DNA from: an uncultured Candidatus Saccharibacteria bacterium
GTDB taxonomy: Bacteria > Patescibacteriota > UBA1384 > XYA2-FULL-43-10 > 1-14-0-10-43-13
Reading direction: 5' to 3'
NCBI GenBank assembly: GCA_964543385.1
Contig: CAZIYE010000002.1
Coordinates: 64,034 to 128,033 of the forward strand
DNA length: 64,000 nt
Numbering within the stretch: position 1 is the first letter of the stretch; every line of letters starts with the position of its first letter. The notes beneath the pieces are model-generated. The model was not told the DNA's origin. It did no database searches and saw only the letters and a list, made by a program, of their open reading frames with translations. The position numbers and the translations under genes were made by a program. Shown here one piece after another: positions 653 through 47,057 of this stretch.

Positions 653-1819
653 GTGATGGTATTCGCAGAATCTCTTGGGAGGGAGGTTGGCACTTATATT
701 AAGAATTTACTCAATAAGGAAGTTTGTATTGTAGATGGAAAGGGCCAATGTGTTGCATCTCCCAACGATGTTCTAAATGGCAAAACTGTAAATCTGCCAG
801 GATTTGTCAATGATTTGAGCTCTCCTAAAGATTATATGGATAATGGTCAGAGTAAAATAATTATTCCTCTACGCTATCAGTCTAAAAATGTAGCTTATAT
901 ACTTTTCGACGGTGATTCTAACGAGGTAAAAAACTATTCACTTCTAGTAAAAAGTTTTGCCGAGTTGCTTGTACAACAATATTATGAAAACAATAAACCT
1001 ATTCTTGACCCTACTGATAATTTCATTATAGAACTTTTTGAGAATTATAGTCCTAGCGACAAGGCAAAACATGAGGCTGAGGCGAGAGTGCTGGGTTATG
1101 ATCTATCCAAAAAAAGATTAGCTATTTCTATCTATTTAGAGGGATTTTGGGATAACTGTCTTCTGGATTTAGATCAAGCTAGCTTTGAGCGTGATCAAAT
1201 AATAAAAAACTGGAAAAGAAATTTAGAGCAATCCATAAATAGTTTTTTCACTAAGAATGCAGATCTTCTTATAGCCTATGTGGGAAATGATAGGTTTGTC
1301 ATATTCAAATCAGTCGATGGAAGCGATGAAGAATCAGTCAAAAAACTGCTTAAGAAATCATACAAATCTATTTTTGATACTCTTAAAAATCATAGGATCA
1401 AGAATATTACAGTTGGATTTGGTAATGCCTATCAATACATTGATGGTTTAATTAGATCCCGTCGAGAAGCCGATTTGACGTTGGAGCTTGGTCAGAGAAT
1501 TTGGGGCGATGGACAAAGTTATTACTTTGGTGAACTAGGACTACTTTCAATTCTTGGCGATGGAGATAGAGAAAAGAAAGTTGAGTTCTCGGATACTCTG
1601 CTGACAAAATTGAAAAATGATGAGTTAAATAAGACACTCGAATCTTTCTTTGAAAACAATCTCAATCTGACAGAAACCGCGGAGCAGATGGGAATTCACA
1701 GAAATACTGTCATATATCGCTTAAATCAGATCACAAAGGTCCTGGGCGCAGATCCTAGAGTTTTTGAACAGGCTATGTCAATCAAAATCGCTCTTATTAT
1801 ACGTGGCCTATTTGGCTAA
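653..1819 (+). CDS. CdaR/PucR-family transcriptional regulator (sugar diacid regulator-like)
   Basis: 388-aa ORF with a C-terminal PucR-type HTH (LNLTETAEQMGIHRNTVIYRLNQITKVLGADP). An N-terminal CdaR-like sensor region precedes it. Confidence 0.6.
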   Translation: MMVFAESLGREVGTYIKNLLNKEVCIVDGKGQCVASPNDVLNGKTVNLPGFVNDLSSPKDYMDNGQSKIIIPLRYQSKNVAYILFDGDSNEVKNYSLLVKSFAELLVQQYYENNKPILDPTDNFIIELFENYSPSDKAKHEAEARVLGYDLSKKRLAISIYLEGFWDNCLLDLDQASFERDQIIKNWKRNLEQSINSFFTKNADLLIAYVGNDRFVIFKSVDGSDEESVKKLLKKSYKSIFDTLKNHRIKNITVGFGNAYQYIDGLIRSRREADLTLELGQRIWGDGQSYYFGELGLLSILGDGDREKKVEFSDTLLTKLKNDELNKTLESFFENNLNLTETAEQMGIHRNTVIYRLNQITKVLGADPRVFEQAMSIKIALIIRGLFG

Positions 1820-1926
1820 GATTTTTAAATCTCTGTAGGGGCAAAAAGAGATATATATTCAAAATACCACCAGAGATTATTCTAGGTGGCATTTTGAATA
1901 TATGGTCTTGTTGTGTTGCTGTTCGG

Positions 1927-3834
1927 CTATCTTGAATTTGCGCTTCGTATGTACCATTCTAATCCAGCCCAACCAATTAATAGGATAGCCGGGATTATCA
2001 GGAAGGAAAAATTATTTTGTTTCGGACTGACAGGATCCATTGGAGTATTAGTCATTGCTATAGTAGTGATCTTATTGTCTGTATTACTGCTTTCAAATAT
2101 CTGTTTATCTATTTTACCGTTCTGCGTGACCCTTTCATTTATATCAGTTTTTCTCTTCGTATTAGTTCTGATTTTCTCTTCACTATTTATATTAATTTGG
2201 CTTTTTCCTACTACACCCGACAGGACTTTCTCTGTTACAACGGGCGTGAAGGTGGAGGCATCATCCTCTTTCTTTATTTTATTTGATAAGTTACCATGCC
2301 AATTGCCAAAGATATTGATTATTTTTAGAGTCATCGTACCTGCTTTGTCAGATAAGCTATTCATAATATTAACAACATTTGAATATAGATCGATACTGCC
2401 GGTTTTAATATTACCAACAGCAGTGTTATTGCTTATGGTGTTTGTTCCGGTATTGGCATATATTTTAACATTATTGTTAGTATCAACATGATTATCTTGC
2501 AATAGATTTACGGTATTTGATGATTCGATTGCGTTTGCGTTAGTTGAGTCTGATCCAGTCGTATCATTAGCCAAATCTGACTTTGTTTCCAGAGAACCAA
2601 ATCCGATTGGGGGAGCGTTTGATCCTCCTCCTAGAAATGCCATTGGATTTGCTCCTACTCGGTTGATAATGAAATTGCCGGAGTCGACAAGATCAATTGC
2701 ATCACCGACCCACTCGCCAAAAACATTAATAATATGTAGGGTTCCGGAATCATTGTTGAGCCAATCAATATTGTTGCTATTAATATCTGTGCCGCCGGTC
2801 ATAATATTGCCAGTAACTGTATTGGTAGAGATATCGTTTTTTCCAGTATTGGTGGTATATTCGAGTGAATTAATAACATTAATATTATTGCTGTGCTCGA
2901 TATTTATTTCAGTGCTACTACCAATATTGTTGTAATCATATGAGGAGTCTCCAGAACTATTACTTCCTGCCCTTGGGATTATAATATCAGCATCTAAATC
3001 GTTCAGAACATTAATTACACCAACTGACATAATCATATTAGGGTTTACAAAATTTTGCAGATTGATGAGATTTGTAGCAAGACTTATGTCCCCGGTTGTG
3101 ATATCTCCGACCTTTGTGTTCTGATCTACATTATTGAGTCCGGTATTGGCATTAATAATTAAATCATTATTTGTACCAGCGTTATTATTATCCAAGATAC
3201 CTATGACATTATTTTGATCAAGTGTATTAATATTGAGTGAATCATTGCCAGTTGTACCGTTGTAAAGATTACTCTGCCCTTGAAGTGGAATCGATGTTCC
3301 ATACATTGCATTATTAGTTAAATCTAGATTCGTCAATCCAGATCCATCGATAGTAGAAGCTGAAACTTGAGATCCTTCTGCAAATTGACTGTTCGAAATG
3401 TTAACAAAGGTGAGGCCTGCATCAATTTCGCCAGTTTCAATCGATCCAACAATAGAATTGTTTCCGATCTGGTTAGCTCCAGAGTTTAGGGCGATATTAG
3501 CATTGTTGCTAGACGCTATATTAGTATTGTTGTTTTGGCTTATAGCGTTAATATTTTCGGAGTCAGGGCCGGTATTATAATTAGTTTCGGATATGTTTTC
3601 ACTTACTGTGGACGTATTGTCTATGGGCACAGTAGTAGTTTCTTCTATTCTGCCAGTTACCATCTCCGGTCCTGTGATAATCTGGACTCCAGTTGGCACT
3701 TGTGGACCGACATCTCCTAAAGTGCCTCTTGTGCTGTCTTCAGCATGAGATAGCCCGTAGGGCAGAAAAGTAAAAAACATCATCAAAATAATGCTGAATG
3801 TTTTTTTTGCGGCTATTAATATAGTTTTTTTCAC
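1927..3834 (-). CDS. secreted Asn/Thr/Gly-rich repeat surface protein with C-terminal transmembrane anchor
   Basis: 635 aa with an N-terminal signal peptide (MKKTILIAAKKTFSIILMMFFTFLPYGLSHA). Long arrays of N-x-NTG-x-N...VG(D/N)I-x-TG-x-I repeats follow. The C-terminus is hydrophobic with a basic tail (FLIIPAILLIGWAGLEWYIRSANSR). Paralogous to 3925..4806. Confidence 0.6.
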   Translation of the reverse strand: MKKTILIAAKKTFSIILMMFFTFLPYGLSHAEDSTRGTLGDVGPQVPTGVQIITGPEMVTGRIEETTTVPIDNTSTVSENISETNYNTGPDSENINAISQNNNTNIASSNNANIALNSGANQIGNNSIVGSIETGEIDAGLTFVNISNSQFAEGSQVSASTIDGSGLTNLDLTNNAMYGTSIPLQGQSNLYNGTTGNDSLNINTLDQNNVIGILDNNNAGTNNDLIINANTGLNNVDQNTKVGDITTGDISLATNLINLQNFVNPNMIMSVGVINVLNDLDADIIIPRAGSNSSGDSSYDYNNIGSSTEINIEHSNNINVINSLEYTTNTGKNDISTNTVTGNIMTGGTDINSNNIDWLNNDSGTLHIINVFGEWVGDAIDLVDSGNFIINRVGANPMAFLGGGSNAPPIGFGSLETKSDLANDTTGSDSTNANAIESSNTVNLLQDNHVDTNNNVKIYANTGTNTISNNTAVGNIKTGSIDLYSNVVNIMNSLSDKAGTMTLKIINIFGNWHGNLSNKIKKEDDASTFTPVVTEKVLSGVVGKSQININSEEKIRTNTKRKTDINERVTQNGKIDKQIFESSNTDNKITTIAMTNTPMDPVSPKQNNFSFLIIPAILLIGWAGLEWYIRSANSR

Positions 3835-3924
3835 ATTTACTCCATCCTTTTAAGTATTGATGGAATTGGGGAGATAGTCCCCAAATCCTCATCAATACTT
3901 GATTAATAACAAGTTTTTATTTTG

Positions 3925-4806
3925 TTAATTAGCCTGATTTACACCAGTAATATTGATACGAACAGAACCGGTTTCAATATCACCAACACTTGTGTTACAC
4001 CCTATATGGTTATTTCCAGTGTTTGTATTGATATTATAATCATTGTTAATATCGGCACGATTGTTAATATCGACATTAACATCTGTCTGAGCATTGATCA
4101 CATTCTCATTCTCTGAGTTTGGACCAGTGGTATCGTTTGTGAAATCGGCAGATATGCTATTGCCTGCTATGTTGCCAAGGTCAATCATAGAAGTATTTCC
4201 ATTAGCAACATTTTTAATATCGGACGAAATATTAATATCACCTGTCGCTATATTCCCCACTACTGTGTTGTTCTCAACTTCATTACTACCAGTATTTGAG
4301 TCGAAGTCGATATCATTTGAGATGTTTGTAAGATTGTCAACCTCGATATTTACGTTACGGTCAAAATTAATTATATTTTCATTTTCTGAGTTGTAGCCAG
4401 TGAATTCATTGCTTCCGGTAAAGTCAAGCGAGCCAAAGAGATCGCTAAAATCCCAATTGACAGAATTACCATCATTTAACTGGTTGTCAAAATTAAGATC
4501 AGCTATAACATCACCAGTTTGATAATCTTCAACTATCGTGTTGTTTTCGATTTCACCATTGCCTGTCTCAACGCTGACGTCGGCATCATTATTAAGAACG
4601 GAATTATTATCTACGCTGATATCGTAGTCCATATCGGAGTTTTGTTCCGATATATTCTCTGAGTTTGGACCAGTTATGTCATTTGAGAAATCGGAATTGA
4701 CGTTAGCGTAGGCAAGTCCAGTTCCCACTAATAAGACAAGGGCAGAAATTGCGGCAAACGAACGAGCTAGAGTTAAAAATTTTTTGTTCATTTTTTTCCT
4801 TTTCAT
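3925..4806 (-). CDS. secreted Asn/Thr/Gly-rich repeat protein (paralog of 1927..3834, no C-terminal anchor)
   Basis: 293 aa with a signal peptide (MKRKKMNKKFLTLARSFAAISALVLLVGTGLAYA). It carries the same NTG...VG.I.TGDI repeat units as the neighbour. Confidence 0.6.
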   Translation of the reverse strand: MKRKKMNKKFLTLARSFAAISALVLLVGTGLAYANVNSDFSNDITGPNSENISEQNSDMDYDISVDNNSVLNNDADVSVETGNGEIENNTIVEDYQTGDVIADLNFDNQLNDGNSVNWDFSDLFGSLDFTGSNEFTGYNSENENIINFDRNVNIEVDNLTNISNDIDFDSNTGSNEVENNTVVGNIATGDINISSDIKNVANGNTSMIDLGNIAGNSISADFTNDTTGPNSENENVINAQTDVNVDINNRADINNDYNINTNTGNNHIGCNTSVGDIETGSVRINITGVNQAN

Positions 4807-5045: not shown

Positions 5046-5462
5046 ATGCAAATGAAAAATTGGCGACTCATATTAATAATCGTGATAGTAGTTCTCTTTA
5101 TTGGGGCTTCATTCGTTCTTTTTGCTAAGAAAGGATTAGTATTCTCGGGAAAAAATAATCAAGAAAATATAAGACAAGCTATTTTTCTTGCAAACGGACA
5201 AGTTTATTTTGGGGAAGTAGAAACAGAAAATAACAGATACCTAATCGTCAGAAGTATCTACTATTTAAAGGCGCAGGATCAACTAGATGCAAACAATCCG
5301 GACAAAAAGATTTCGATTATTAAACTAGGTGATGAGCTTCACGGTCCAGAGGACAAAATGTATATTAACAGGACTCAGGTTTTGTTTTATGAAAACATGA
5401 GAAAAGACTCAAAAATAAATGAAGCTATTAACAGGTTCATCGAAAATAAAAATAAAATATAA
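5046..5462 (+). CDS. hypothetical membrane-anchored protein
   Basis: 138-aa ORF with a single N-terminal TM helix (LILIIVIVVLFIGASFVLFA). No recognisable domain. Confidence 0.4.
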   Translation: MQMKNWRLILIIVIVVLFIGASFVLFAKKGLVFSGKNNQENIRQAIFLANGQVYFGEVETENNRYLIVRSIYYLKAQDQLDANNPDKKISIIKLGDELHGPEDKMYINRTQVLFYENMRKDSKINEAINRFIENKNKI

Positions 5463-5486
5463 GATTCTCTTTATCTTAGATATATT

Positions 5487-5870
5487 CTAGACAATTTCTC
5501 TGATTTTGTTCACTACATCCTCGGGAGTATTGAGAGATTTTACCATATAACCTTTTGCTCCCAGAGATATTGCCAGCTTTGTATCGCTATCTACGGATTC
5601 GCTGCCAACATTTGTTAGCACGAGTACGGGTATATTTTTTGTTGAATTATCGTCCTTTAGCTTTTTGAGTATTTCGAACCCATTAATATTGGGAAGCAAA
5701 ACGTCTAAAAGAATGATATCGGCACCTTCGCGTGCCCTTTGCATAGCAATTCTTCCATCAGTAACAGTCAGAACGCGGAATCCTTCATTTTTTAATTTTT
5801 CCTTATACATTTCTACTAGAGATTGATCATCTTCAATCAATATCACTGTTTTTTTCTTTGCTTTTTCCAT
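5487..5870 (-). CDS. single-domain response regulator (CheY-like receiver)
   Basis: 127 aa with receiver-domain hallmarks: an acidic pocket (ILIEDD) and a phospho-acceptor Asp (IILLDVLLP). It lies immediately downstream of the sensor kinase on the same strand. Confidence 0.8.
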   Translation of the reverse strand: MEKAKKKTVILIEDDQSLVEMYKEKLKNEGFRVLTVTDGRIAMQRAREGADIILLDVLLPNINGFEILKKLKDDNSTKNIPVLVLTNVGSESVDSDTKLAISLGAKGYMVKSLNTPEDVVNKIREIV

Positions 5871-5887
5871 CTTTGTTCCTTTATTAT

Positions 5888-8065
5888 TTATTTTATAAAT
5901 GAGGGCAGAGTTATGTGAAATGTTGTACCTTTATTTTTCTCACTCTCGACCCAAATATCTCCTTGTTGCTTGTTAATTAATTTTTTGGCGATAAATAATC
6001 CCAATCCAGTACCACCTGCCTTGATCGATAATTTATTTGGGATTCTTACAAATCTATCAAATATCGTTTGGATATGTTCTTTTCCAATGCCAACACCCGA
6101 ATCCTTTATAGAAATTATTACTTGGTCATCATTCTTACCGATGGTAATATTAACTTCTCCTTTATCATTCGTATATTTTATGGCATTATCAACAATATTT
6201 TCAATGGCATGCTTTGTTTTAATTTTATCTGCGTAAATAAGAGTAGATTTCTTCTTGGTGAAAATTATATTGATAGACTTTGCTTTGGCCTTTGACCCTA
6301 GATTATCAAGAACTTCTAATATGAGTTTATTCACATCAAAGCTTTGTACATTCAGGGCAACCCTATCTTCTTCTATTCTTAATGTTTCCAATACATCTTC
6401 TACAAGATGGGTCAATCTCTCAGTCGACATATATGCTCTGGTAAAATACTTCTCCTGCATGTTGTTTAATTTTCCAGCGTCACCATGTAGTATCATGCTC
6501 AAATAGCCAGCTATAGAGGTTAAAGGTGTTCTTAGTTCGTGAGCAGTTGTAGTTATAAATTCATTTTTAATTTGTATAAGGTTTTTTTCTTTTGAGATAT
6601 TACGTAAAACAATAATAATATTCTTACTTATATGAGTGTTGGACTGTAAGGAGGAAAAAGATGCATTTAGCCATATTTTTTTACCAAATTTATCTGTCAT
6701 TTCTTCTTCAATAGCCGTATCTTTTGCTTTGTTGACGCTCTTAAAGAAACTATCGATAATAACAGATATTTTTGCAAGCCCTAAGCTATTTAGAAATATA
6801 TCGTGATAGTCTAGAGCGATAGTATCATGAGCTGAAAGATGGGTGATTTCTTCTATGTATCTATTCCAGATAATGATTTTTCCTTCTTCATTTATTACAG
6901 CAACTCCGTCATTAACATTAGTAATTACTTTATCTAGAAGCTCACGCTCAGCTTCTGATTGGCAAAAGAGCCGGCTATTCTCAATTGCAAGACCGATCAT
7001 GCCAGCTAGTATCTGCAAGAATTGAACTTCGGATTCTGAAAATTGCTTAACTCTTTCATAACTAACTGATAAAACCCCTATTAATTTCTCATTTGGCATA
7101 ATCGGTATGCAGACAATGCTACCTTCCTTGTCTTTCCCTAGATATGCTTTACTTTTTTTCGTGTCTTCTACAATAATTGTCTGCTTCTTTTCGGCGCAAA
7201 GTCCGGCGATGCCCTGACCATTTTTAAAACTCTTGAAATTTTTTGGTACTGATTCTCCATCAGATCTTTTAATCGCTTTGATTATGATCTCTGAAGAGGA
7301 ATTATTTATTAGCCCAATACTTGCAGTATTTGAATTAAAGGCTGCTAATGTTTCATTCACGGCTGAATTTAAAATGGTATCCAAATTTCTAACCTTGAAT
7401 AAAGCTTTTGATAAGTGATATATTAAATCACTTTTCTTATCAAGGAGATAGGAAGGACTAATAGTTTTTGTAATCAAATTATTTTCTGAAACAAGATTTA
7501 CTTTTGTTTGTTTTTTGCCTTTTATAACTACATTTTCGATCAAGTATCTAACAGGAACTGTTAAATTAAGATTAAGGGCTTCTCTCGGTGTAAACCAATT
7601 ATAACCATCACTTTCTGAGCTAAGAAAAACCTCGACATCCTTTGGCATCTCGAAGCTAAATAAATACCATTCATGGATATCAACACCATAACGACAACGG
7701 TCACCTTTGATCTCCCCCTTATAAATAAGCTCTACTTCTGGGATGATTATGCCTGTCTCTTCGAGTATTTCTCTGCCCAAACTTTCGATAGGGGTTTCTC
7801 CCTCTTCAAGATGACCACCTGGCGTTGCCCAGCAATATGGATACATCCGTCTTTTTATAAGTAGAATTTTTCCATTATGCCAAATAATAGCTCCTGCCCC
7901 TGCATGCTTTATTCCTTCTGGGGTGTTCAACTCTACTACTGGTCTCGAAGTATTATTAGCTCTTTGGGAGATAGTCATACAAGAATGACAGTAGTAATAA
8001 TGCCTACCTTTTTTGTTAACTTCTGTAATTTGTTCGCTCTCACATTTTGGGCAATAAAATTTCAT
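5888..8065 (-). CDS. multidomain sensor histidine kinase: Zn-ribbon + Nudix hydrolase + GAF + PAS + HisKA + HATPase_c
   Basis: 725 aa. N-terminal CPKC...CHSC zinc ribbon. Nudix box GGHLEEGETPIESLGREILEETGI. A GAF-like region and a PAS-like region. H-box HELRTPLTSIAGY. G-boxes DSGVGIG and GGTGLGLFIAKKL. Confidence 0.8.
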   Translation of the reverse strand: MKFYCPKCESEQITEVNKKGRHYYYCHSCMTISQRANNTSRPVVELNTPEGIKHAGAGAIIWHNGKILLIKRRMYPYCWATPGGHLEEGETPIESLGREILEETGIIIPEVELIYKGEIKGDRCRYGVDIHEWYLFSFEMPKDVEVFLSSESDGYNWFTPREALNLNLTVPVRYLIENVVIKGKKQTKVNLVSENNLITKTISPSYLLDKKSDLIYHLSKALFKVRNLDTILNSAVNETLAAFNSNTASIGLINNSSSEIIIKAIKRSDGESVPKNFKSFKNGQGIAGLCAEKKQTIIVEDTKKSKAYLGKDKEGSIVCIPIMPNEKLIGVLSVSYERVKQFSESEVQFLQILAGMIGLAIENSRLFCQSEAERELLDKVITNVNDGVAVINEEGKIIIWNRYIEEITHLSAHDTIALDYHDIFLNSLGLAKISVIIDSFFKSVNKAKDTAIEEEMTDKFGKKIWLNASFSSLQSNTHISKNIIIVLRNISKEKNLIQIKNEFITTTAHELRTPLTSIAGYLSMILHGDAGKLNNMQEKYFTRAYMSTERLTHLVEDVLETLRIEEDRVALNVQSFDVNKLILEVLDNLGSKAKAKSINIIFTKKKSTLIYADKIKTKHAIENIVDNAIKYTNDKGEVNITIGKNDDQVIISIKDSGVGIGKEHIQTIFDRFVRIPNKLSIKAGGTGLGLFIAKKLINKQQGDIWVESEKNKGTTFHITLPSFIK

Positions 8066-8279
8066 GGTAACTAATAACTATTTATAAATGTAATATCTAG
8101 TTTAATTGTAAATCAAACGCATTTTTATATGAAAATATAATAATAAACTTAGTTTACACATATTTTTTTGTACATTATCACAAACAAATCCTATTGACAT
8201 TCCAATGTATATATTATACAATATAAAGTTCTTATTGTCAATAATGGCAATAGAACAAATGCAAAAGGAGGCTACTGTG

Positions 8280-9146
8280 ATGCGTGACCACGATTCTTTG
8301 TCGGACATAATAGCAGTAAATCGTGCAGTAAGAGACAACATAATCGATGAAGCCCCTGACTACCGGGCTCGGATATTGCCAGATCCCTTGAGGTTCACTA
8401 TCGAACAAATTCTGGTAGGGATTGAAAAGTTTGTGGTGTTCCTGGGCGATGGTCCAGGGGCTGGCCGCACCTTTTTCATGGAGCAACTTATGACTCGGTA
8501 TCCCGATCAAATCGGTATATTGCCGCTTCATATGACGCGTGCCAGAAGGAATGGTGAAATCGAGGGAATCCATGGCCATTTCATGGGTCCTAAGAGCAAG
8601 CAGGCATTTCGTCATCTAGAGGAGTCTGATTTCTTCTTTCTCTCCTTTCAACTGGGGATTGCAAAAAGAAAGAAGCTTGCTGGAATTTCAATGCATGACA
8701 TGAGTTGTGCAATAGATTCAAGCAAGATTTGGCTCATCGATATGCCAGCTTACGCGATACCCCGGTTCTCTGGGGTATTCAACAGGACAAGGATAGTCCT
8801 GGTCACTGCTCCGCCGGTTGATCATTTGCGAAATCTGCGTCGTCGTGGTTTCTCAGATAGTCAGCTTGCCGATTGCTATTGGCAGAATGAGATTGGCACA
8901 TGCGAGCCAGTGACCCTTCCCCCGGTACAGCCGATCGTTAATAAGCGGTGTCGTACTGAGGCAAATATGGAGCTGCTTCGGGAATTCGTTCTCGACAGCA
9001 CGCTTCCTAGCACCCATTCTCCTCCCTGCTTGAGCGGGGAGGAGAATGAATCAAATTATATTGGCCCCGAAAAACGGAGGCCTTTTTTTGGAGAGCGATA
9101 TAAATTTATTGGCTTTTCATTGTATGTTATCCAAAATTCAGCATAG
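8280..9146 (+). CDS. guanylate-kinase-like protein with degenerate P-loop (GDGPGAGRT)
   Basis: RBS AAAGGAGG lies 8 nt upstream of the ATG at 8280; the ORF track begins at 8205. P-loop-like FLGDGPGAGRTFF has Arg in place of Lys. LVTAPPVDHLRNLRRRG resembles the guanylate kinase lid (PPS..EL..RLRGRG). GC is about 50% against a roughly 33% background. Confidence 0.45.
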   Translation: MRDHDSLSDIIAVNRAVRDNIIDEAPDYRARILPDPLRFTIEQILVGIEKFVVFLGDGPGAGRTFFMEQLMTRYPDQIGILPLHMTRARRNGEIEGIHGHFMGPKSKQAFRHLEESDFFFLSFQLGIAKRKKLAGISMHDMSCAIDSSKIWLIDMPAYAIPRFSGVFNRTRIVLVTAPPVDHLRNLRRRGFSDSQLADCYWQNEIGTCEPVTLPPVQPIVNKRCRTEANMELLREFVLDSTLPSTHSPPCLSGEENESNYIGPEKRRPFFGERYKFIGFSLYVIQNSA

Positions 9147-9343
9147 TATTTGTAGCCGTCAAGGTCCTTATTAACATAATAATCAATATTTGTACCAAAG
9201 TATAAGGATGATGATGGTGTCTACCAGAATATTTAAATTATTATTGAAGCTTTTTCTGCATATATATAATATGTGGCTGGTAGTGAAATTCTTGAAAATA
9301 GTTCTAAATAAAAATGGTCATTGTTTATTGTTCGATGCTAAAT

Positions 9344-9372
9344 AAAATAGAGAAGGGAACCTTCTCTATTTT
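9344..9372. terminator. bidirectional rho-independent terminator hairpin downstream of rplT
   Basis: Perfect stem aaaatagagaagg / ccttctctatttt around a 3-nt loop. It is flanked by A-runs and T-runs. Confidence 0.5.
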
Positions 9373-9396
9373 ATTTATTCAAGCGTAAAAATAGTT

Positions 9397-9738
9397 CTAT
9401 TTGATTTTTGCTATAATGGCATCAAAGGCTTTTGGATCACTGACTGTTAGGTCGGATAACATTTTTCTGTTTATGTCGATCTTGTTCTTAGCCAACTTTT
9501 CGATAAATTCAGAATAGCTCATACCATGGACTCTAACGGCTGCATTGATTCTAACTATCCATAAAGATCTGAAGGTTCGTTTTTTGACTCTTCTGTCTCT
9601 ATAAGAATATTGACCAGCCTTAATAATGGCCTGTTTGGCTAATTTGAATACAGATTTTCTGCGTCCCTGATAGCCTTTTGCTTTTTTCAGGATTTTCTTG
9701 TGTTTAGCACGACGTACTGTGCCGGTTTTTACTCTCAT
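9397..9738 (-). CDS. rplT: 50S ribosomal protein L20
   Basis: 113 aa: [28 protein letters not shown]... This is a typical L20 sequence. Confidence 0.95.
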
Positions 9739-22467: not shown

Positions 22468-22944
22468 ATGATTAAAATTGTTTATGCAGTTCTGTTGGGA
22501 GTGATTCTTGCTTTTTTTATTGGGTTGGGAATAGAGGCATTTTATCCGACAGAAAAGTATCCCGAAGCACCAACGGAGGTTCAATATGGCAAGGTTGATG
22601 GGGGAAATCTCTCTGCGGATGAAATAAAAGCTCAGCGAGATTTCGATACAAAGGTCAAAGAATTTCAGGATCGGAACAAGGACCATGCTAAAAACGTCTC
22701 ACTCGTTGCTATCATCGGTAGCATCATTTATATGATAATAAGCCTTGCCGTTCTAAATAAAAAGGATGTCTTCGCAGATGGTTTCCTTATCGGTAGCCTG
22801 TTGACCTTGATTTACGGCATAATGCGAGGATTTGAGAGTGACGATAGCAAGTTCCGTTTTATTATTGTTTCGGTTGGATTGGCGGCTGCGCTTATCCTCG
22901 GTTACTTTAAATTCCTGCGCCAAAAAGAAGAGCCAAAGAACTAG
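22468..22944 (+). CDS. hypothetical membrane protein
   Basis: 158 aa with 3-4 TM helices. RBS GGAGG lies upstream. Confidence 0.4.
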   Translation: MIKIVYAVLLGVILAFFIGLGIEAFYPTEKYPEAPTEVQYGKVDGGNLSADEIKAQRDFDTKVKEFQDRNKDHAKNVSLVAIIGSIIYMIISLAVLNKKDVFADGFLIGSLLTLIYGIMRGFESDDSKFRFIIVSVGLAAALILGYFKFLRQKEEPKN

Positions 22945-29900: not shown

Positions 29901-29974
29901 TGGCTCGGGGACATGGATTCGAACCATGATTCACGGCTTCAAAGGCCGCTGTCCTGCCATTAGACGATCCCCGA
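29901..29974 (-). tRNA. tRNA-Gln (anticodon UUG)
   Basis: Read on the minus strand: TCGGGGA TC GTCT AATGGCA GGAC A GCGGC CTTTGAA GCCGT GAAT CATGG TTCGAAT CCATG TCCCCGA G CCA. Cloverleaf is complete: 7-bp acceptor stem, GTTCGAAT T-loop, anticodon TTG, encoded CCA. Confidence 0.85.
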
Positions 29975-30109
29975 ATATATTTCGATTTATTCTAACCTAA
30001 ATAAGCGATTATTTCAATAAGAAGGGAGTAAAAAGCCAAAACCGCTGCAATCCTGCAGCGGCTCGAAAATCCATTTTCGGTTTTGGCAAGGCCAAGGTGG
30101 TCTTACTGG

Positions 30110-30490
30110 TTACGGGGCGTGAATCGCCCTCATTTCCTCTTCGGTGAGGGGGATCCCTTCGCAGGAACCGGTGTAATAGTAGCACCAGTACCAACAGAGG
30201 GGGACTACTTTCGGCCCCAGCACTTGTAGTATCGGGACTTGAGCGGTTGGGGCCGGCATGGTTTCGACGGTCTCCAGAACCGGAGGAGTGTAGAATGTTT
30301 GGAACGAGGATTCCTCGATTCTATAATTCTCACTCTCCATTTGTGCGAAAAACACGCCGAAGGTTCCTTCGCAGGTCATTGTCTGCGATGTAGCAGTTTC
30401 GACGGCTTCTGCCGTCTCTGCTGCCGTGCAGGCAATAGCTGCAAGAACAAACATCGCTGCCATAAAGGCGAGCTGAATCAACTTCCGCAT
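30110..30490 (-). CDS. small secreted Cys-rich protein (126 aa), GC-rich
   Basis: Strong SD (AAGGAGGAACCCCT-ATG). Signal peptide MRKLIQLAFMAAMFVLAAIACTAAETAEA. Cys-rich C-terminus (VPLCWYWCYYYTGSCEG). A compound hairpin terminator follows at about 30038-30090. Confidence 0.5.
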   Translation of the reverse strand: MRKLIQLAFMAAMFVLAAIACTAAETAEAVETATSQTMTCEGTFGVFFAQMESENYRIEESSFQTFYTPPVLETVETMPAPTAQVPILQVLGPKVVPLCWYWCYYYTGSCEGIPLTEEEMRAIHAP

Positions 30491-30595
30491 AGGGGTTCCT
30501 CCTTTGTGAGACGGAAGTGCAGCAGTGTAGCTGCGTTGATCAGTATTATATAAGCATTGTTGGCATATGTCAAGTTAAAAATTGGTTTTATATTT

Positions 30596-30985
30596 AAAAC
30601 ACCCCGACAAAAGTCGAGGTGTTACCCCACTGGTTGCCCAGTGAAAGGGCCATATTGTGGGGATAGACTAAAAGTAGATTATAAGCCGGGTTCTGTCAAG
30701 GATGACAATCTATCTAAGCATGGAGACCTTGCATATCCTTCGAGCAGAAGTTGATATGATCGGTCCACTCCACTTGCACCAAACGAGGCTTGCCACGGAC
30801 GCATGTTGCCATACGAACGCGTGAGCTCTTACCTCACGATTTCAACCTTACCGGTTGTAAACAACTTAGGCGGTATATTTTCTGTTGCGCTATTCTCGAA
30901 CCTCACGGCCCGCTCATTTTCACGAGCGTTTTGCTCTATGGTGCCCGGACTTTCCTCCCCGCGTATGTGGGGCTGTCATCACATC
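30596..30985 (-). ncRNA. rnpB: RNase P RNA, bacterial type A
   Basis: Minus strand carries GGGGAGGAAAGTCCGGGCACC (CR-I), GTGAGGTAAGAGCTCAC, TAGAT, and ACAGAACCCGGCTTAT (CR-V, exact match to the consensus). A 3' terminator hairpin (ACCTCGACTTTTGTCGGGGTG + TTTT) follows. GC-rich against the AT-rich genome, as expected for a structural RNA. End coordinates are approximate. Confidence 0.85.
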
Positions 30986-31086
30986 CACTTTTAGCATAAT
31001 AATTATAAATAAAAATGCTATTTTTGTCAACAGATTTGAGCTAGATGCATGATTTGGATATAATGATAGAAATAAATGGAGAAAAA

Positions 31087-41856: not shown

Positions 41857-42432
41857 ATGAAAATTTTATCCAAAGAAAAATCTCGGGAGATATTAATCAA
41901 ATTATTATCACTTTTCCAATGCGATCAGTTTGAGAAGATGGATAAATATCTCAATTCAAAGCCATTCAGATTCTTCAAATTCTATGCAAGCAATTCTTGC
42001 GAGCTCCCATTTTTATTTTGGGATGAAAAAGAAGCCAAGAAGATATTTGATTCCGCGATTAGTATTAGTGGTGCGGTAAAGGATAGTGATGGTGGTGTAT
42101 ACGGTATTGGTAATTATGATTATTTAGATAAATTAGCAAACTTTTTGAAAACACAGGGCTTTGTAAATATATACGGCGCTGGTAATTGGGATCCCTTCGG
42201 CAATGTTGGTCACAGTGCCATTGGCCTAAATGTTAATGAAATTAGGGGTATTAGCAGACATAACTACGATGACATCTATTTCTTTGATGAAAATTTTACC
42301 TGGATGCTCGCATTTAATCATCATAGAAACGGATTTTTTGCCGGATCAAAAGAAATGATAGAAGATTTTTCATATTCAGTGCCCGAATTTCGCAAATACC
42401 TCAGAGAAGAATGCTCCTGCTGCGGGCTTTGA
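41857..42432 (+). CDS. hypothetical protein with C-terminal CSCCGL tail (gene A)
   Basis: The track ORF starts at TTG 41833; the first ATG is at 41857 (MKILSKEK). No known domain. Its last roughly 25 codons recur twice downstream (43251..43340 and about 46170..46218). Confidence 0.45.
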   Translation: MKILSKEKSREILIKLLSLFQCDQFEKMDKYLNSKPFRFFKFYASNSCELPFLFWDEKEAKKIFDSAISISGAVKDSDGGVYGIGNYDYLDKLANFLKTQGFVNIYGAGNWDPFGNVGHSAIGLNVNEIRGISRHNYDDIYFFDENFTWMLAFNHHRNGFFAGSKEMIEDFSYSVPEFRKYLREECSCCGL

Positions 42433-42779
42433 CTTATCCGCTAAGTTGACATTTGACACCCTTTAATTGCTTCTGTAGAATTTATGCATGGATACGTTAT
42501 GGACAAAATTTAGACCCAAACGCAAGTTGCGGGCTAAGTGTGTCTTTGAAGAACTCCAAATAGATAGGACCCCTCTGGGGCCCTTTTTTGTATCCTGTAC
42601 ACTCACAATCTAACGAAAGGAGGACTCCGGAGAATGGGAGCAATGTTGGTACACGTTTCTGCATTAGAATATCTCTCAGTGCTCGCTCTTCGGAGATTCT
42701 CCGAAGAAGACCTGCGAAGGATTCAAAAAGCAGAGGATTTCGCTACTGAGAAGTTGCAAGGCATATTGCGGCGTGATGG
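42410..42779 (+). repeat. 370-bp perfect direct repeat, copy 1 (gene-A 3' end + promoter + leader + first 49 codons of an HD hydrolase)
   Basis: Identical to 46198..46567 base for base. Imperfect similarity extends about 18 bp further upstream (42392 / 46180). Confidence 0.9.
42453..42481 (+). promoter_or_regulatory. consensus sigma70-type promoter TTGACA-17-TAGAAT (copy 1)
   Basis: ttgaca at 42453-42458, a 17-nt spacer, tagaat at 42476-42481. A roughly 146-nt leader follows, containing a terminator-like hairpin at about 42566-42589. Confidence 0.55.
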
Positions 42780-43250: not shown

Positions 43251-43340
43251 ATGAGAGAGCAAGATGATTCAAAATTCTCATATTCAGTGCCTGAATATCG
43301 CAAATACCTCAAAGAAGAATGCTCCTGTTGTGGGCTTTAA
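43251..43340 (+). pseudogene. 29-codon fragment duplicating the 3' end of gene A (…FSYSVPEYRKYLKEECSCCGL)
   Basis: MREQDDSKFSYSVPEYRKYLKEECSCCGL is about 85-90% nt identity to the last roughly 75 bp of 41857..42432. Confidence 0.5.
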
Positions 43341-43518
43341 ATTTTTTAGTTCTGCATTACAGTAAAGCCAATTTGACAAAACAAATTGCTTAGAATATCA
43401 TCATATGAAACAAGCTTTATAGAAAGAAAAATATCTCCCAGACAAGTAAAATGTTGTTAGGGGATCATCTTTTTATAGGACAAAATATAGAATTTAAAAT
43501 CCAAGCAAGAATCAAAAA

Positions 43519-44919
43519 ATGAATGCCAATAATCAAAGAGTTGCTATAGCTGGACTTGGACCTCATGCCAAACGTATCTATATTAGGGTTCTCGCAAATT
43601 ATGAAATTCAACCAAAATTAGTAATAGATATACAGTCTTCTGAGGAAAGTGTTAGGAAATTTCTAAGAGAGCATAAAATCAAATGTGATCTATATTTTGT
43701 ACCGGATAAAAACAAAGATCTTAGGCGTCTTTCCGGAGAAGACAAGAAAAATATTGCACGTCTCCTCAAAAAAAATAAAATCAATAAAGCAATAATATCT
43801 ACAGAACCAAAATCTCATGTCGCATATGCGGAATTTTTTTTGAAACAGAAGTTGCCAGTTCTAATGGATAAGCCAGTTACGGCCATAAAAAATGCATGTT
43901 TCGATGATCGCCTTGCCCAGCAAATCTATAAAGAATATAAGCATCTGAGAGATATGTCTATTCAAAATGATGTTCCTCTAGTAATCCAATCTCAGAGGAG
44001 ATATCACGGTGGATATATCTTTATCAGGGAATTACTTAAAGATACCATATTAAAATATGGTATTCCGGTTACGCATATGGATATTTATCATTGTGATGGT
44101 CAATGGAATATGCCAATAGAATACATTACTAGGGATAATCATCCTTTTAATTATGGGTATGGTAAGGTTTTACATAGTGGCTATCATTTTGTTGATTTCA
44201 TGAGTTGGATAGTAGCTCTTAACAATTTATTACCAGACAAAAAGCCGGATTGTTTCGATGCTATTCACAAGACAGTTAAACCTCAAGATCAACTCTTTCA
44301 ACTTAATGAAAGCTATGAAAAACTTTTTGAAAAAGAGTTACCAGGATTGCCAGAGAAAGATTTTTCCAAAATGGGTGAACTAGATTCTTACTCATTTATG
44401 CAATTCAAAAGAGAGGGCAAAGTAGTCACTTCTGTAAATCTGAATATGTTGCACAGTGGATTTTCTCGACGGGCTAGTTCTGAATTGGCCAAGGATGTTT
44501 ATAAAGGTAATGGCAGGGTAAGGCATGAGAGAATAAATATCCAGATTGGTCCGATACTCAATATACAAGTTCATAGTTATCAATCTTATGAAATCAAAGA
44601 TAGCAGTTATTCAAAGAAAGAGATTGAACCTGGCGGTTTAGACCACTTCGATATTTATATATTCAGGAATTCTGGTATTATCGGTGGCAAGTCGTTCGAA
44701 AAAATTCAGGTCTCCAACCGGAGCCGTATCAATAGGAGAACGCACATGGGCCATAATGAGGAAGCCAGGGAAAGGTGCACAAAAGATTGGTTACAAGGAA
44801 ATGAGAGTGAGAATGATGTGTTAAAACACAAGCTCACTAATTTAGTTATGTCTACCCTATATCGCTGTTCTGCCAAGGAAAATTTAGGCAGATTCCCATA
44901 TATGGAAGTTAAACTGTAG
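43519..44919 (+). CDS. Gfo/Idh/MocA-family oxidoreductase (with extended C-terminal region)
   Basis: N-terminal Rossmann region VAIAGLGPHAKRIYIRVL...ISTEPKSHVAYAEFFLKQKLPVLMDKP carries the EKP-type motif. Confidence 0.6.
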   Translation: MNANNQRVAIAGLGPHAKRIYIRVLANYEIQPKLVIDIQSSEESVRKFLREHKIKCDLYFVPDKNKDLRRLSGEDKKNIARLLKKNKINKAIISTEPKSHVAYAEFFLKQKLPVLMDKPVTAIKNACFDDRLAQQIYKEYKHLRDMSIQNDVPLVIQSQRRYHGGYIFIRELLKDTILKYGIPVTHMDIYHCDGQWNMPIEYITRDNHPFNYGYGKVLHSGYHFVDFMSWIVALNNLLPDKKPDCFDAIHKTVKPQDQLFQLNESYEKLFEKELPGLPEKDFSKMGELDSYSFMQFKREGKVVTSVNLNMLHSGFSRRASSELAKDVYKGNGRVRHERINIQIGPILNIQVHSYQSYEIKDSSYSKKEIEPGGLDHFDIYIFRNSGIIGGKSFEKIQVSNRSRINRRTHMGHNEEARERCTKDWLQGNESENDVLKHKLTNLVMSTLYRCSAKENLGRFPYMEVKL

Positions 44920-44957
44920 TTTGACAATCAAATCCAAGTACGAGGGGGAGCTGAAAG

Positions 44958-45650
44958 ATGCCGGTTACTGTGGCGTTTGACGGTTTGAATCGATGCGGTA
45001 AAGGCACCCAGGCAGCATTGCTGCAGTCTCGCCTTCGCGAGATGGATGTTTTTTCCGTGATCATCAGAGGCGACGGTTCGAGGGATGGCTTGGGATTGAC
45101 ACCAGGTGATCCAGAAGACCTCTGGTGGCAAGGCTTCAAAAGCTGTCTAAAGGGCAGCGAAGGGACAACGCGCTGGTTCGATAAATGGAATGAAGCAGCG
45201 TGTCGCTTAGCGCATGAATTAATTTGCTGGCAGGGAATAACATTCCCTCAAATGCTGAAAGATTCAGGGCGTAAAAGCGGAGTCTTACTTATCGATCGGA
45301 GCATTATTTCCAGAATTATGGTTATGCGGCAAGCCGGAGAGTATAACGGTTTAAACAGCCTGTATACTGTCGGAGGCGAGCCACAAGACATTGACTGGGA
45401 AGAGGTGCTACCCACAGTGCTGTTCAATTTCCATGTGCCCCAAGAGGTACTTCTGGCACGGTTGGATCATGATGATCCAAAGTATCAGTTCCGAAAGGGC
45501 ATTATCGAACAGCATTTCCAACTCCATGTCTCTGTTTCTAGGGAGCTGCCAGAAGAAATTTTAGGCAGAACAATCCCTTTGAACGGCGACAATGAGCTTG
45601 AGGTTATCCACGAAGAAATATCTGCGGTAGTGGAACCTCTATTGCATTAG
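44958..45650 (+). CDS. thymidylate-kinase-like P-loop protein with divergent Walker A (GLNRCGKGTQ), GC-rich
   Basis: VAFDGLNRCGKGTQAALL resembles the dTMP kinase motif (I)AFEGIDGSGKSTQ. GC is about 52% against a roughly 33% background. Confidence 0.45.
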   Translation: MPVTVAFDGLNRCGKGTQAALLQSRLREMDVFSVIIRGDGSRDGLGLTPGDPEDLWWQGFKSCLKGSEGTTRWFDKWNEAACRLAHELICWQGITFPQMLKDSGRKSGVLLIDRSIISRIMVMRQAGEYNGLNSLYTVGGEPQDIDWEEVLPTVLFNFHVPQEVLLARLDHDDPKYQFRKGIIEQHFQLHVSVSRELPEEILGRTIPLNGDNELEVIHEEISAVVEPLLH

Positions 45651-45713
45651 TGCGGGCAGAGTGTGGGGCAGGACGCCCCACACCATAATTTGAAAAAGTA
45701 ATAAAAGGAGTAT

Positions 45714-46142
45714 ATGAGGCACAGTTTTGATTCAGTGAATGTCAGTACAATAATTTTTAATAGAAAAGGACAGGTTCTTTTGGGAAAAAGAAGTATGGAC
45801 GAGGATGTATATCCCGGACTTTGGTGTGTGCCTGGAGGCAAGATAGATGTGGAAGCCTGTGAAGGTGAAATTATCGAGAACAATTTAAAAAGAGAGGTGA
45901 AGGAAGAGATAGGGATAGAGATAGAACCTCTCTTTTATCTTGCTAGCAATTGTCTTATAAAAGGAGACGAGGCAAAATTATATCTGATGTTTGTATCAGA
46001 GCATGTTGCCGGTGAGCCATTTGCACTTGACGGTACCGAAGAAGTTAAATGGTTTGAAATCGATGAACTAACACCAGAAATGCTAACGCCTAAAACCTAT
46101 GACAATATTCAAAAAGCGAGTGACAAAAGAATATCTCTCTAA
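45714..46142 (+). CDS. Nudix hydrolase
   Basis: Nudix box GGKIDVEACEGEIIENNLKREVKEEIGI. Confidence 0.75.
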   Translation: MRHSFDSVNVSTIIFNRKGQVLLGKRSMDEDVYPGLWCVPGGKIDVEACEGEIIENNLKREVKEEIGIEIEPLFYLASNCLIKGDEAKLYLMFVSEHVAGEPFALDGTEEVKWFEIDELTPEMLTPKTYDNIQKASDKRISL

Positions 46143-46197
46143 AAATATCTAGACAATTTCGAAATCTTAATTTATTTCCGCAAATATCTCAGAGAAA

Positions 46198-46567
46198 AAT
46201 GCTCCTGCTGCGGGCTTTGACTTATCCGCTAAGTTGACATTTGACACCCTTTAATTGCTTCTGTAGAATTTATGCATGGATACGTTATGGACAAAATTTA
46301 GACCCAAACGCAAGTTGCGGGCTAAGTGTGTCTTTGAAGAACTCCAAATAGATAGGACCCCTCTGGGGCCCTTTTTTGTATCCTGTACACTCACAATCTA
46401 ACGAAAGGAGGACTCCGGAGAATGGGAGCAATGTTGGTACACGTTTCTGCATTAGAATATCTCTCAGTGCTCGCTCTTCGGAGATTCTCCGAAGAAGACC
46501 TGCGAAGGATTCAAAAAGCAGAGGATTTCGCTACTGAGAAGTTGCAAGGCATATTGCGGCGTGATGG
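46198..46567 (+). repeat. 370-bp perfect direct repeat, copy 2
   Basis: Identical to 42410..42779. It is preceded by a 16-codon remnant of the gene-A tail (…YFRKYLREKCSCCGL*) at about 46170-46218. It contains promoter copy TTGACA(46241)-17-TAGAAT(46269). Confidence 0.9.
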
Positions 46568-47057
46568 CACACCAGCCATTGAGCACTCAAGAGCACTTGC
46601 ACTCAAAGCATGCGAGCTAAAACTGTCAGCAAACGCTATAGCGATTGCCTGGTTGCACGATGTGTTGGAGGACAACCTCAATGTCACATCGTGGGACCTG
46701 TACTGTTTGTTTGGAGTCGTCCATGGGGCGATCATCACCAACGGCGTAATAGCCTTGACACAATGCGACTGGATGTCTGACGAAGTGTACTTCAATAGGA
46801 TCGAAGTTGCATCCTCAGTCAACTGGGAGATTGTAGTCGTCAAATTAATTGATCGCTGGCATTTCCATTCGGACTTTTACAACGGTCCGGAGAAGAAAGA
46901 GCTAGCCAAGATTGACCAGACACAGAAGATCTTCCAGCAGACTATCAGAAACTGTGAAGTATTAGTTCCGGAAGATTTCCGGTCGACATACAATCAGTTG
47001 CTGGATGAAGTACTGGAGCTTGCAGAAATCCGGCAAGCTGAACTAATGGCCGCATAG
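46422..47057 (+). CDS. HD-domain protein resembling the (p)ppGpp hydrolase domain of RelA/SpoT (small alarmone hydrolase-like)
   Basis: 211 aa. HSRALALKACELKLSANAIAIAWLHDVLEDN matches the Rel/SpoT HD region (...HPLEVA.IL.ELGLD...AALLHDVVEDT). RBS AAAGGAGGA lies upstream. Confidence 0.55.
   Translation: MGAMLVHVSALEYLSVLALRRFSEEDLRRIQKAEDFATEKLQGILRRDGTPAIEHSRALALKACELKLSANAIAIAWLHDVLEDNLNVTSWDLYCLFGVVHGAIITNGVIALTQCDWMSDEVYFNRIEVASSVNWEIVVVKLIDRWHFHSDFYNGPEKKELAKIDQTQKIFQQTIRNCEVLVPEDFRSTYNQLLDEVLELAEIRQAELMAA

Follow-up and report, generated by a model that had tools for sequence, protein, structure and literature searches.

What is the product of a gene that reads like a guanylate kinase gene, stands out in GC content from its neighbors, and encodes a nucleotide-binding loop in which the canonical lysine is replaced? 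The question is raised by positions 8280-9146 of a 64,000-nt stretch of DNA from an uncultured Candidatus Saccharibacteria bacterium (contig CAZIYE010000002.1); the window, as the term is used here, is that whole stretch. An earlier note on this DNA had taken the gene for a pseudokinase, a horizontally acquired gene, or both, and it overlooked what we found to be the main context, namely that the gene is partnered, in a conserved way, with a sensor kinase fused to a Nudix domain. As a companion of this module, the guanylate kinase-like (GK-like) gene is conserved yet evolves extremely fast. The reading that we favor, with about an even chance of being right, is that the protein belongs to a rare GK-fold family partnered with the module in Saccharibacteria-type genomes and that the window copy probably still binds its ligand while being either impaired in the manner of a pseudokinase or in decay.

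A guanylate kinase fold with an altered P-loop

8280..9146, + strand: gene for the GK-fold orphan protein, 288 aa, with a conserved core at residues ~28-245 and a probable read-through tail at residues 246-288
8265..8271, + strand: Shine-Dalgarno sequence AAGGAGG, 8 nt ahead of the ATG at 8280
8445..8471, + strand: aberrant Walker A motif GDGPGAGRT (G56-T64), with Arg63 (codon CGC) for Lys and a one-residue insertion
8535..8567, + strand: phosphate-clamp motif T86-R87-x2-R90-x2-E93-x2-G96, placed by alignment columns and fitting the canonical TTRxPRxGExxG
8808..8849, + strand: LID-like segment APPVDHLRNLRRRG, with R189-G190 invariant in the family

The open frame at 8205-9146 (+) is intact, and its best start is the ATG at 8280. 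We preferred this start given the Shine-Dalgarno sequence ahead of it, a promoter match at 8194-8222 that rules out the ATG at 8205, and a public record of an identical protein that is likewise 288 aa long. The protein sequence of 8280-9146 was also identical in independent assemblies of runs SRR12261223 and SRR12261226, indicating that the gene is no assembly artefact.

The earlier note had proposed profile searches and a structure prediction, and together these gave GK scores below threshold, a confident GK fold, a retained phosphate clamp, and a lost Walker lysine. The AlphaFold2 (AF2) model, built from a 20-sequence alignment, had a mean predicted local distance difference test (pLDDT) score of 74.6; it was confident over residues ~40-245, with 81-97 in the core, and scored below 50 for residues 1-27 and 246-288. 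The top Foldseek matches of this model in the Protein Data Bank (PDB) were the yeast, human, and E. coli guanylate kinases (1gky at E 5.8e-11, TM 0.75), and the top 50 were mostly GMP kinases, the remainder being GK-like domains of MAGUK and ciliary FAP42-type proteins. We accepted the GK fold on the basis of these matches, which, with the AF2 core, bear out the note's claim that the protein is GK-like; the product is, in our reading, a real stand-alone protein with the complete fold of CORE, NMP-binding, and LID parts. Pfam Guanylate_kin (PF00625) matched the sequence at E 3e-5 with 24.1-24.2 bits, below its gathering score of 25.2, and TIGR03263 gave 20.5 bits, below its cut-off of 160.45. 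The PDB sequence matches included MAGUK GK domains (E ~5e-4) and yeast GK (E ~4e-3).

Compared with Gmk and GUK1 (PF00625, TIGR03263; 1GKY, 1EX7, 1LVG, and 2ANB), the window protein has the same three-part fold (TM ~0.75 to 1gky), a P-loop at the same place, a TTRxPRxGE-type motif (T86, R87, R90, E93, and G96), an APP...L..RG lid segment, the final strand, and the C-terminal helix. It differs in scoring below both curated cut-offs, in the replacement of the Walker Lys by Arg, in a loop that alignment to relatives shows to be one residue longer, and in its gene neighborhood, and it adds an N-terminal extension of ~50 aa with the motif [TA]P[DE][YF], an insertion after the lid, and a disordered tail of 43 aa. 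The lid is present as the earlier note had described it, and the note was equally correct that the Walker A motif lacks the canonical Lys. A Lys codon is at least two steps away from the CGC of Arg63, and among 20 aligned sequences the window protein is the sole exception at this position, where Lys is at least 90% conserved. D154 and T64 are kept in the alignment. In a pairwise alignment with a GUK1-type protein, L83, G99, gap/F120, A134, and I136 stand where the canonical enzyme has its GMP contacts Ser, Tyr, Glu, Tyr, and Thr, respectively; the roles of these contacts are established from GK structures (1GKY and 1EX7; PMC3335814). Judged by its profile scores and the loss of the guanine contacts, the protein is not a housekeeping Gmk, as the note had also suggested. 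In P-loop NTPases, a change from Lys to Arg usually spares binding and cripples phosphoryl transfer. A pseudokinase reading of the window protein is plausible from its sequence.

The GK domains of MAGUK proteins (PSD-95/Dlg, MPP5/PALS1, and CASK) are derived from guanylate kinases, have lost catalysis, and now serve as binding modules. They are a precedent for the use of the GK scaffold as a phospho-ligand binder (PMC3335814, PMC4718807), in which the phosphate is recognized by two Tyr and an Arg inherited from the enzyme (PMC3335814). MAGUK domains are among both the best PDB sequence matches and the fold matches of the window protein, with sequence E-values that do not improve on those obtained for true enzymes. 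However, the phosphate triad is not reproduced, given that the two Tyr positions are Gly99 and Ala134 and only the Arg is kept. The hinge switch from Ser to Pro is also absent, the aligned residue being L83 with Pro82 adjacent, and the window protein is bacterial and single-domain, without PDZ or SH3. If the favored reading is true, the family would offer a bacterial parallel to the transition from enzyme to binding module in the animal MAGUK proteins.

A rare and fast-evolving family

A word-indexed search of 5.8 billion proteins returned the query itself as the single match. When 1.84 billion representatives were searched exhaustively with HMMER, 29 matches were obtained at E<=1e-3, most of which were canonical or tandem GK domains aligned over the core only; the four that aligned full-length were P0006, P0007, P0008, and P0019 (227-266 aa). 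A profile search of the fetched loci added a sixth member at 5345-6097 of locus L088, so that the family as used here consists of the window protein and five others. Pairwise identity across the family is 20-34% (pairwise E 1e-7 to 1e-16), and the best relative of the window protein among ~1.8 billion representatives is at most 31% identical to it. From these comparisons, we conclude that the family is very rare and fast-evolving. No relatives of the window protein were found in genome_contigs and viral_contigs, and the family alignment contained no stretch whose conservation was sufficient for a metagenome query.

The members share an architecture of an N-terminal extension with [TA]P[DE][YF], a (M/T)TRxxRxxExxG motif, and a QNxxG insertion, and their lid segment usually reads PxDH(L)R with a final invariant Arg (R189). 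In the family and multiple alignments R87, R90, E93, G96, and R189 are invariant, and T86 was also scored as invariant. The Walker A motif is an 8-residue GxxxxGK[ST] in five of the six members, the window protein being the exception. Literature searches turned up no account of the GK-like family, of histidine kinases fused to a Nudix domain in Saccharibacteria, or of Arg variants of Walker A in nature; the GK-fold variant is new, and its association with a Nudix-fused two-component system is unreported.

We also considered whether the locus carries phage or defense genes. This was rejected, given that the PADLOC defense models matched neither of the two kinase-like genes discussed here nor the HD gene at 46422-47057. 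PHROGs gave weak guanylate- or thymidylate-kinase matches only.

Association with a Nudix sensor-kinase module

5888..8065, - strand: sensor kinase with zinc-ribbon, Nudix (box intact), GAF, PAS, HisKA, and HATPase domains, divergent from the GK-like gene
5487..5870, - strand: single-domain response regulator, REC only
9397..9738, - strand: rplT (L20), convergent neighbor and synteny anchor with L088 and L086
8194..8241, no single strand: overlapping divergent sigma70-like promoters, by pattern match only
L088, 5345-6097: GK-like gene in the order bactofilin, DAGK-like, IF3, L35, L20, GK-like, zinc-ribbon-Nudix-GAF-GAF-PAS-histidine kinase, response regulator, as in the window
L084 (P0007): GK-like gene divergent from separate zinc-ribbon Nudix, GAF-GAF-PAS-histidine kinase, and response regulator genes
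L086 (P0008): GK-like gene convergent with rplT (58% identity)
L087 (P0019): GK-like gene convergent with a Nudix gene of the same type

A zinc-ribbon Nudix hydrolase adjoins the family gene in four independent loci (the window, L084, L088, and L087), and in three of these four a GAF-PAS histidine kinase is part of the Nudix protein or encoded beside it, with the gene of a single-domain response regulator coming next. Adjacency was judged in these four contexts; the flanks of L085 and L086 were short or uninformative. The gene also occupies the same position beside rplT in two relatives, L088 and L086. Between the window and L088, the flanking proteins are 52-73% identical and the histidine kinases ~39-40%, compared to 24% for the GK-like proteins; between the window and L084, identity is 60% for the response regulator, 40% for the Nudix, and 34% for the histidine kinase. 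The positional orthologues are 24-31% identical to the window protein, and the GK-like gene is the fastest-evolving of its locus. In a more distant relative, L005, the block from uvrA to rplT is kept and the whole module is absent. The UvrA of the window has a best match at 91% identity, in a metagenome-assembled genome (MAG) of Saccharibacteria, and its next matches are at 70%, which assigns the window to Candidatus Saccharibacteria.

Saccharibacteria and other bacteria of the candidate phyla radiation (CPR) depend on hosts for nucleotides, and their signaling is mostly uncharacterized. The tie of a GK-fold family to a sensor kinase fused with a catalytically intact Nudix domain matters because it points to a connection, open to testing, of two-component signaling with nucleotide salvage or sanitation.

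By pattern match only, the GK-like gene would be served by a plus-strand promoter, TTGACA-17-TACAAT at 8194-8222 (11/12 consensus match), and the Nudix-histidine kinase operon by a minus-strand promoter, TTGACA-17-TATAAT at 8241-8213 (12/12 consensus match). The two lie on opposite strands with a common -10 region and form the palindrome TTGACA...TGTCAA. Given the common -10 region, binding of RNA polymerase for the GK-like gene and for the operon could be mutually exclusive. By inspection, no clear counterpart of the palindromic pair was seen in L088 or L084.

Locus L095 has an island of ~0.9 kb at 5550-6450, with 56-63% GC in a contig of ~42% GC, directly upstream of its zinc-ribbon Nudix, histidine kinase, and response regulator genes. 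The island has open frames on both strands, without a Pfam match, and the Nudix box of this locus has one Glu replaced (REFMEGVG). We rejected the open reading frames (ORFs) of the island as family members, given that hhalign of both against the family profile showed no relation. A search with the zinc-ribbon Nudix alignment against metagenome_contigs gave pattern matches without a true relative.

A pair of repetitive proteins (~290 aa and ~630 aa, without a Pfam match) accompanies the Nudix-histidine kinase/response regulator module in four loci, at 1927-4806 of the window, 9585-12413 of L088, 2780-5520 of L091, and 13962-16903 of L084. In L084 a sortase gene follows the pair, suggesting that the repetitive proteins may be surface proteins under the control of the system.

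GC elevation across the family

The earlier note had called the gene GC-rich against AT-richer neighbors, and this held. The GC content is 0.475 over 8280-9146 and 0.487 over 8280-9060, compared to 0.375 for the window, 0.34-0.38 for the neighboring genes, and 0.24-0.27 for the flanking intergenic DNA. The island extends from ~8290 to ~9060, past which GC collapses. The comparison of codon use and GC at third codon positions (GC3) that the note had proposed, made with the window ORFs as background, pointed the same way: GC3, with a mean of 0.343 (sd 0.05), reached 0.47 in this gene, and the codon-choice GC residual, the GC excess left once amino-acid content is corrected for, was +0.060 (z 4.8). 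The CGN codons make up 18 of 26 Arg codons in the gene and 277 of 659 in the other genes, and the protein contains 9% Arg and 6.9% Pro compared to 3.9% and 3.1% for the remaining genes of the window. Ranked among 55 window ORFs, the top three outliers in GC and codon use were 46422-47057, 8280-9146, and 44958-45650.

The counterparts in three related loci are elevated as well:

L088: GK-like gene with GC 0.507 and GC3 0.53, neighbors 0.36-0.42; locus maximum, codon residual z 2.3
L084: GK-like gene with GC 0.543, rest of the locus 0.453; GC-richest gene
L086: GK-like gene with GC 0.463, flanks 0.381

The note had read the GC anomaly as a sign of horizontal acquisition. Since these positional orthologues share no more than 24-31% identity with the window protein and yet lie above their flanks in GC, recent acquisition is not supported. 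Synonymous sites are saturated at this divergence, and a single recent transfer thus cannot explain an elevation that the orthologues have in common; a family-intrinsic cause or recurrent replacement is needed. The GC expected from amino-acid content alone is also highest for the GK-like gene in each locus. We conclude that the GC content reflects an Arg- and Pro-rich composition together with GC-leaning codon choice and is not the mark of a recent import.

The 3' end of the window copy

9015..9048, + strand: 15-bp GC-rich hairpin in the 3' tail of the ORF, where homologues have a stop codon and then a terminator hairpin
9063..9090, + strand: second hairpin (9063-9082) followed by T7, intrinsic-terminator-like, within the ORF and 54 nt ahead of its TAG stop
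9339..9377, no strand assigned: perfect 18-bp inverted repeat in the gap between the GK-like gene and rplT, with the look of a bidirectional terminator

The homologues end a few residues past the C-terminal helix, at a stop codon that is followed by a GC-rich terminator hairpin. The window frame continues through two hairpins (9015-9048 and 9063-9082/U7; dG -41.6, z -5.6), and an out-of-frame TAG at 9008-9010 lies 4 nt ahead of the first of them. A frameshift was considered as the origin of the long tail and rejected, given that the upstream alternative frame is full of stops. With that frame closed, any lesion must lie within the last few codons before 9008, and most likely a small lesion immediately ahead of the former stop added ~45 read-through residues to the window copy. 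The tail, together with the Walker A changes unique to this copy, suggests relaxed constraint on it. The hairpin arm does not recur as a dispersed repeat. Termination of transcription at the second hairpin, if it occurs, would leave the mRNA without a stop codon.

Proposed function and alternative explanations

Under the favored reading, the ancestral function of the family would be to bind or phosphorylate a phosphate-bearing, nucleotide-like ligand other than a guanine nucleotide. We infer a non-guanine ligand because the family has kept an ATP-type P-loop, the TR-x2-R-x2-E-x2-G clamp, and one lid Arg and has no guanine-specific residues. The ligand would come from the small-molecule pathway in which the partner Nudix domain acts, and the GK-like activity would supply or buffer what the sensor kinase reads as its signal. 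Given the Lys-to-Arg change and the P-loop insertion, both found in the window copy only, and the read-through across the hairpins, this copy would probably still bind the ligand and transfer phosphate poorly or not at all; it would then be either a regulatory partner akin to a pseudokinase or a gene at an early stage of decay.

Several observations weigh against this reading. The Nudix association is based on four contexts, and in L095 the module of zinc-ribbon Nudix, histidine kinase, and response regulator is present with an unrelated GC-rich ORF in the place of the GK-like gene. P0006 lies on a contig of 63-65% GC on which the neighbors are not recognizable. Some catalysis might still be possible with Arg in place of the Walker Lys, and since a strong promoter match, a ribosome-binding site (RBS), and the open frame are all kept, the gene may be fully functional. 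Finally, the GC excess at synonymous sites (z 4.8 in the window and 2.3 in L088) has no demonstrated cause, and repeated replacement by transfer could account for it.

Going further than the favored reading, one could join these elements into a circuit with the GK-like protein as writer or buffer and the Nudix as eraser of a ligand read by the histidine kinase; separately, the GC elevation may reflect a distinct selective or exchange regime. We regard this extended reading as a long shot. The regime may be, for example, recurrent exchange with high-GC actinobacterial hosts, and a nucleotide-signaling circuit of a GK-fold protein, a Nudix, a GAF/PAS kinase, and a receiver-only regulator may prove to be previously undescribed in Saccharibacteria.

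The alternative that survives best, although we consider it unlikely, is a fully active kinase with an unusual P-loop, whose substrate would be a non-guanine nucleotide or a phosphorylated metabolite made or used by the neighboring Nudix. The clamp residues R87, R90, and E93, the lid R189-G190, T64, and D154 are all kept, the AF2 core is confident, and the intact ORF has a good promoter match and an RBS. However, the Walker Lys is near-invariant, with the window protein the sole exception among the 20 aligned sequences and the other five family members keeping it, and its change to Arg generally cripples phosphoryl transfer. The P-loop insertion also speaks against activity, as does an acidic residue after strand 3 that is not conserved in the family.

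More doubtful is that the gene is a non-functional relic, a pseudogene in the making with its frame still open. Such decay would fit the unique Lys-to-Arg change and P-loop insertion, an ORF that crosses two terminator-type hairpins into AT-rich former intergenic DNA (consistent with loss of an ancestral stop), the out-of-frame TAG just before the first hairpin, and the fastest evolution at the locus. Against this, a stop-free frame of 867 nt is unlikely to last in a genome of 37% GC, the family-invariant residues are all kept, the same sequence was recovered from two samples, and the GC-rich composition is opposite to AT-biased mutational decay.

We also think it quite improbable that the gene is a recent import from a higher-GC donor whose composition has not yet ameliorated. 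Its rank as a strong GC and codon outlier in the window, with a synonymous residual of z 4.8, the high-GC contig of P0006, and the lack of the whole module beside rplT in L005 would suit such a history. It is contradicted by orthologues at the same rplT/Nudix-histidine kinase junction (L088 and L086) and beside the Nudix and histidine kinase (L084), each GC-elevated over its flanks and at most 31% identical to the window protein. The family is star-like, with pairs at 20-34% identity and no close donor, nothing above 31% identity was found in the ~1.8 billion representatives, and neither flanking repeats nor mobile-element genes were found at the GK-like gene.

A divergent housekeeping Gmk of a reduced genome can be set aside as very improbable, given that the GK fold and weak Guanylate_kin and TIGR03263 matches that would speak for it come with scores of 24.1 against 25.2 bits and 20.5 against 160.45 bits, with loss of the GMP contacts and Walker Lys, and with canonical gmk genes at other loci that the same profile readily distinguished.

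A second kinase-like gene in a repeat-flanked cassette

44958..45650, + strand: second GC-rich gene, thymidylate kinase (TMPK) fold, with the family P-loop G[LP]NR[CV]GKGTQ
43519..46142, + strand: conserved three-gene cassette of a 466-aa GFO/IDH/MocA-like protein, the TMPK-like kinase, and a 142-aa Nudix
42388..42687, + strand: left copy of a 300-nt direct repeat, 99% identical, flanking the cassette
46176..46475, + strand: right copy, 300 nt, overlapping the start of the HD gene (46422-47057) by the first 54 nt of the gene

The earlier note had described this gene as a GC-rich, degenerate nucleotide kinase within a repeat-flanked cassette. The composition and the setting stood; the degeneracy did not, given that its P-loop, GLNRCGKGTQ, keeps the Lys and is conserved across the family. 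Compared with thymidylate kinases, the gene product has the TMPK fold, a Lys in the P-loop, and DRS- and lid-like motifs, and differs in a loop that reads GKGT instead of GK[ST]T. Given that GKGT is conserved across the whole family, it is a family trait and not decay. The AF2 model (pLDDT 87.7) matched thymidylate kinases by Foldseek at E 2e-8 (TMt 0.65-0.73), and the profile scores were below the cut-offs (17.9 vs 27 bits in Pfam and 14.5 vs 83.25 in TIGR00041). Homologues 39-67% identical occur in CPR genomes, e.g., a Parcubacteria MAG. We take it for a likely functional gene of the cassette that may be mobile, not for a degenerate kinase.

The TMPK-like gene always lies between the 466-aa GFO/IDH/MocA-like gene and the 142-aa Nudix gene, and its GC was 0.486, 0.497, and 0.438 in the three genomes compared (44958-45650 of the window, 6001-6708 of L168, and 6001-6699 of L169), against 0.33-0.38 for its cassette partners. 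GC elevation beside a Nudix gene is common to the TMPK-like gene and the GK-like family. The 300-nt repeats around the cassette suggest insertion or duplication by recombination; a third, partial copy is present at 43275-43343. In L168 the cassette lies near an SU10-type portal gene and a helix-turn-helix regulator (1702-4039), which hints that it can be borne by a phage or prophage. The TMPK-like family was not found in viral_contigs.

Other compositional outliers in the window

Two unrelated kinase-like families are GC-elevated across deeply diverged orthologues, which calls for caution with transfer calls made from composition only: a GC-rich gene in such genomes is not automatically foreign. 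The GC peak at 30001-31000 (0.49) is accounted for by the RNase P RNA at 30666-30992 (186.6 bits), preceded closely by tRNA-Gln at 29901-29974, and no foreign gene is involved in either case. Fourth among the codon and GC outliers is 22468-22944 (GC3 0.428, residual z 3.5). The strongest is the HD gene at 46422-47057 (GC3 0.538, residual z 5.4), which resembles a RelA/SpoT-type hydrolase or small alarmone hydrolase.

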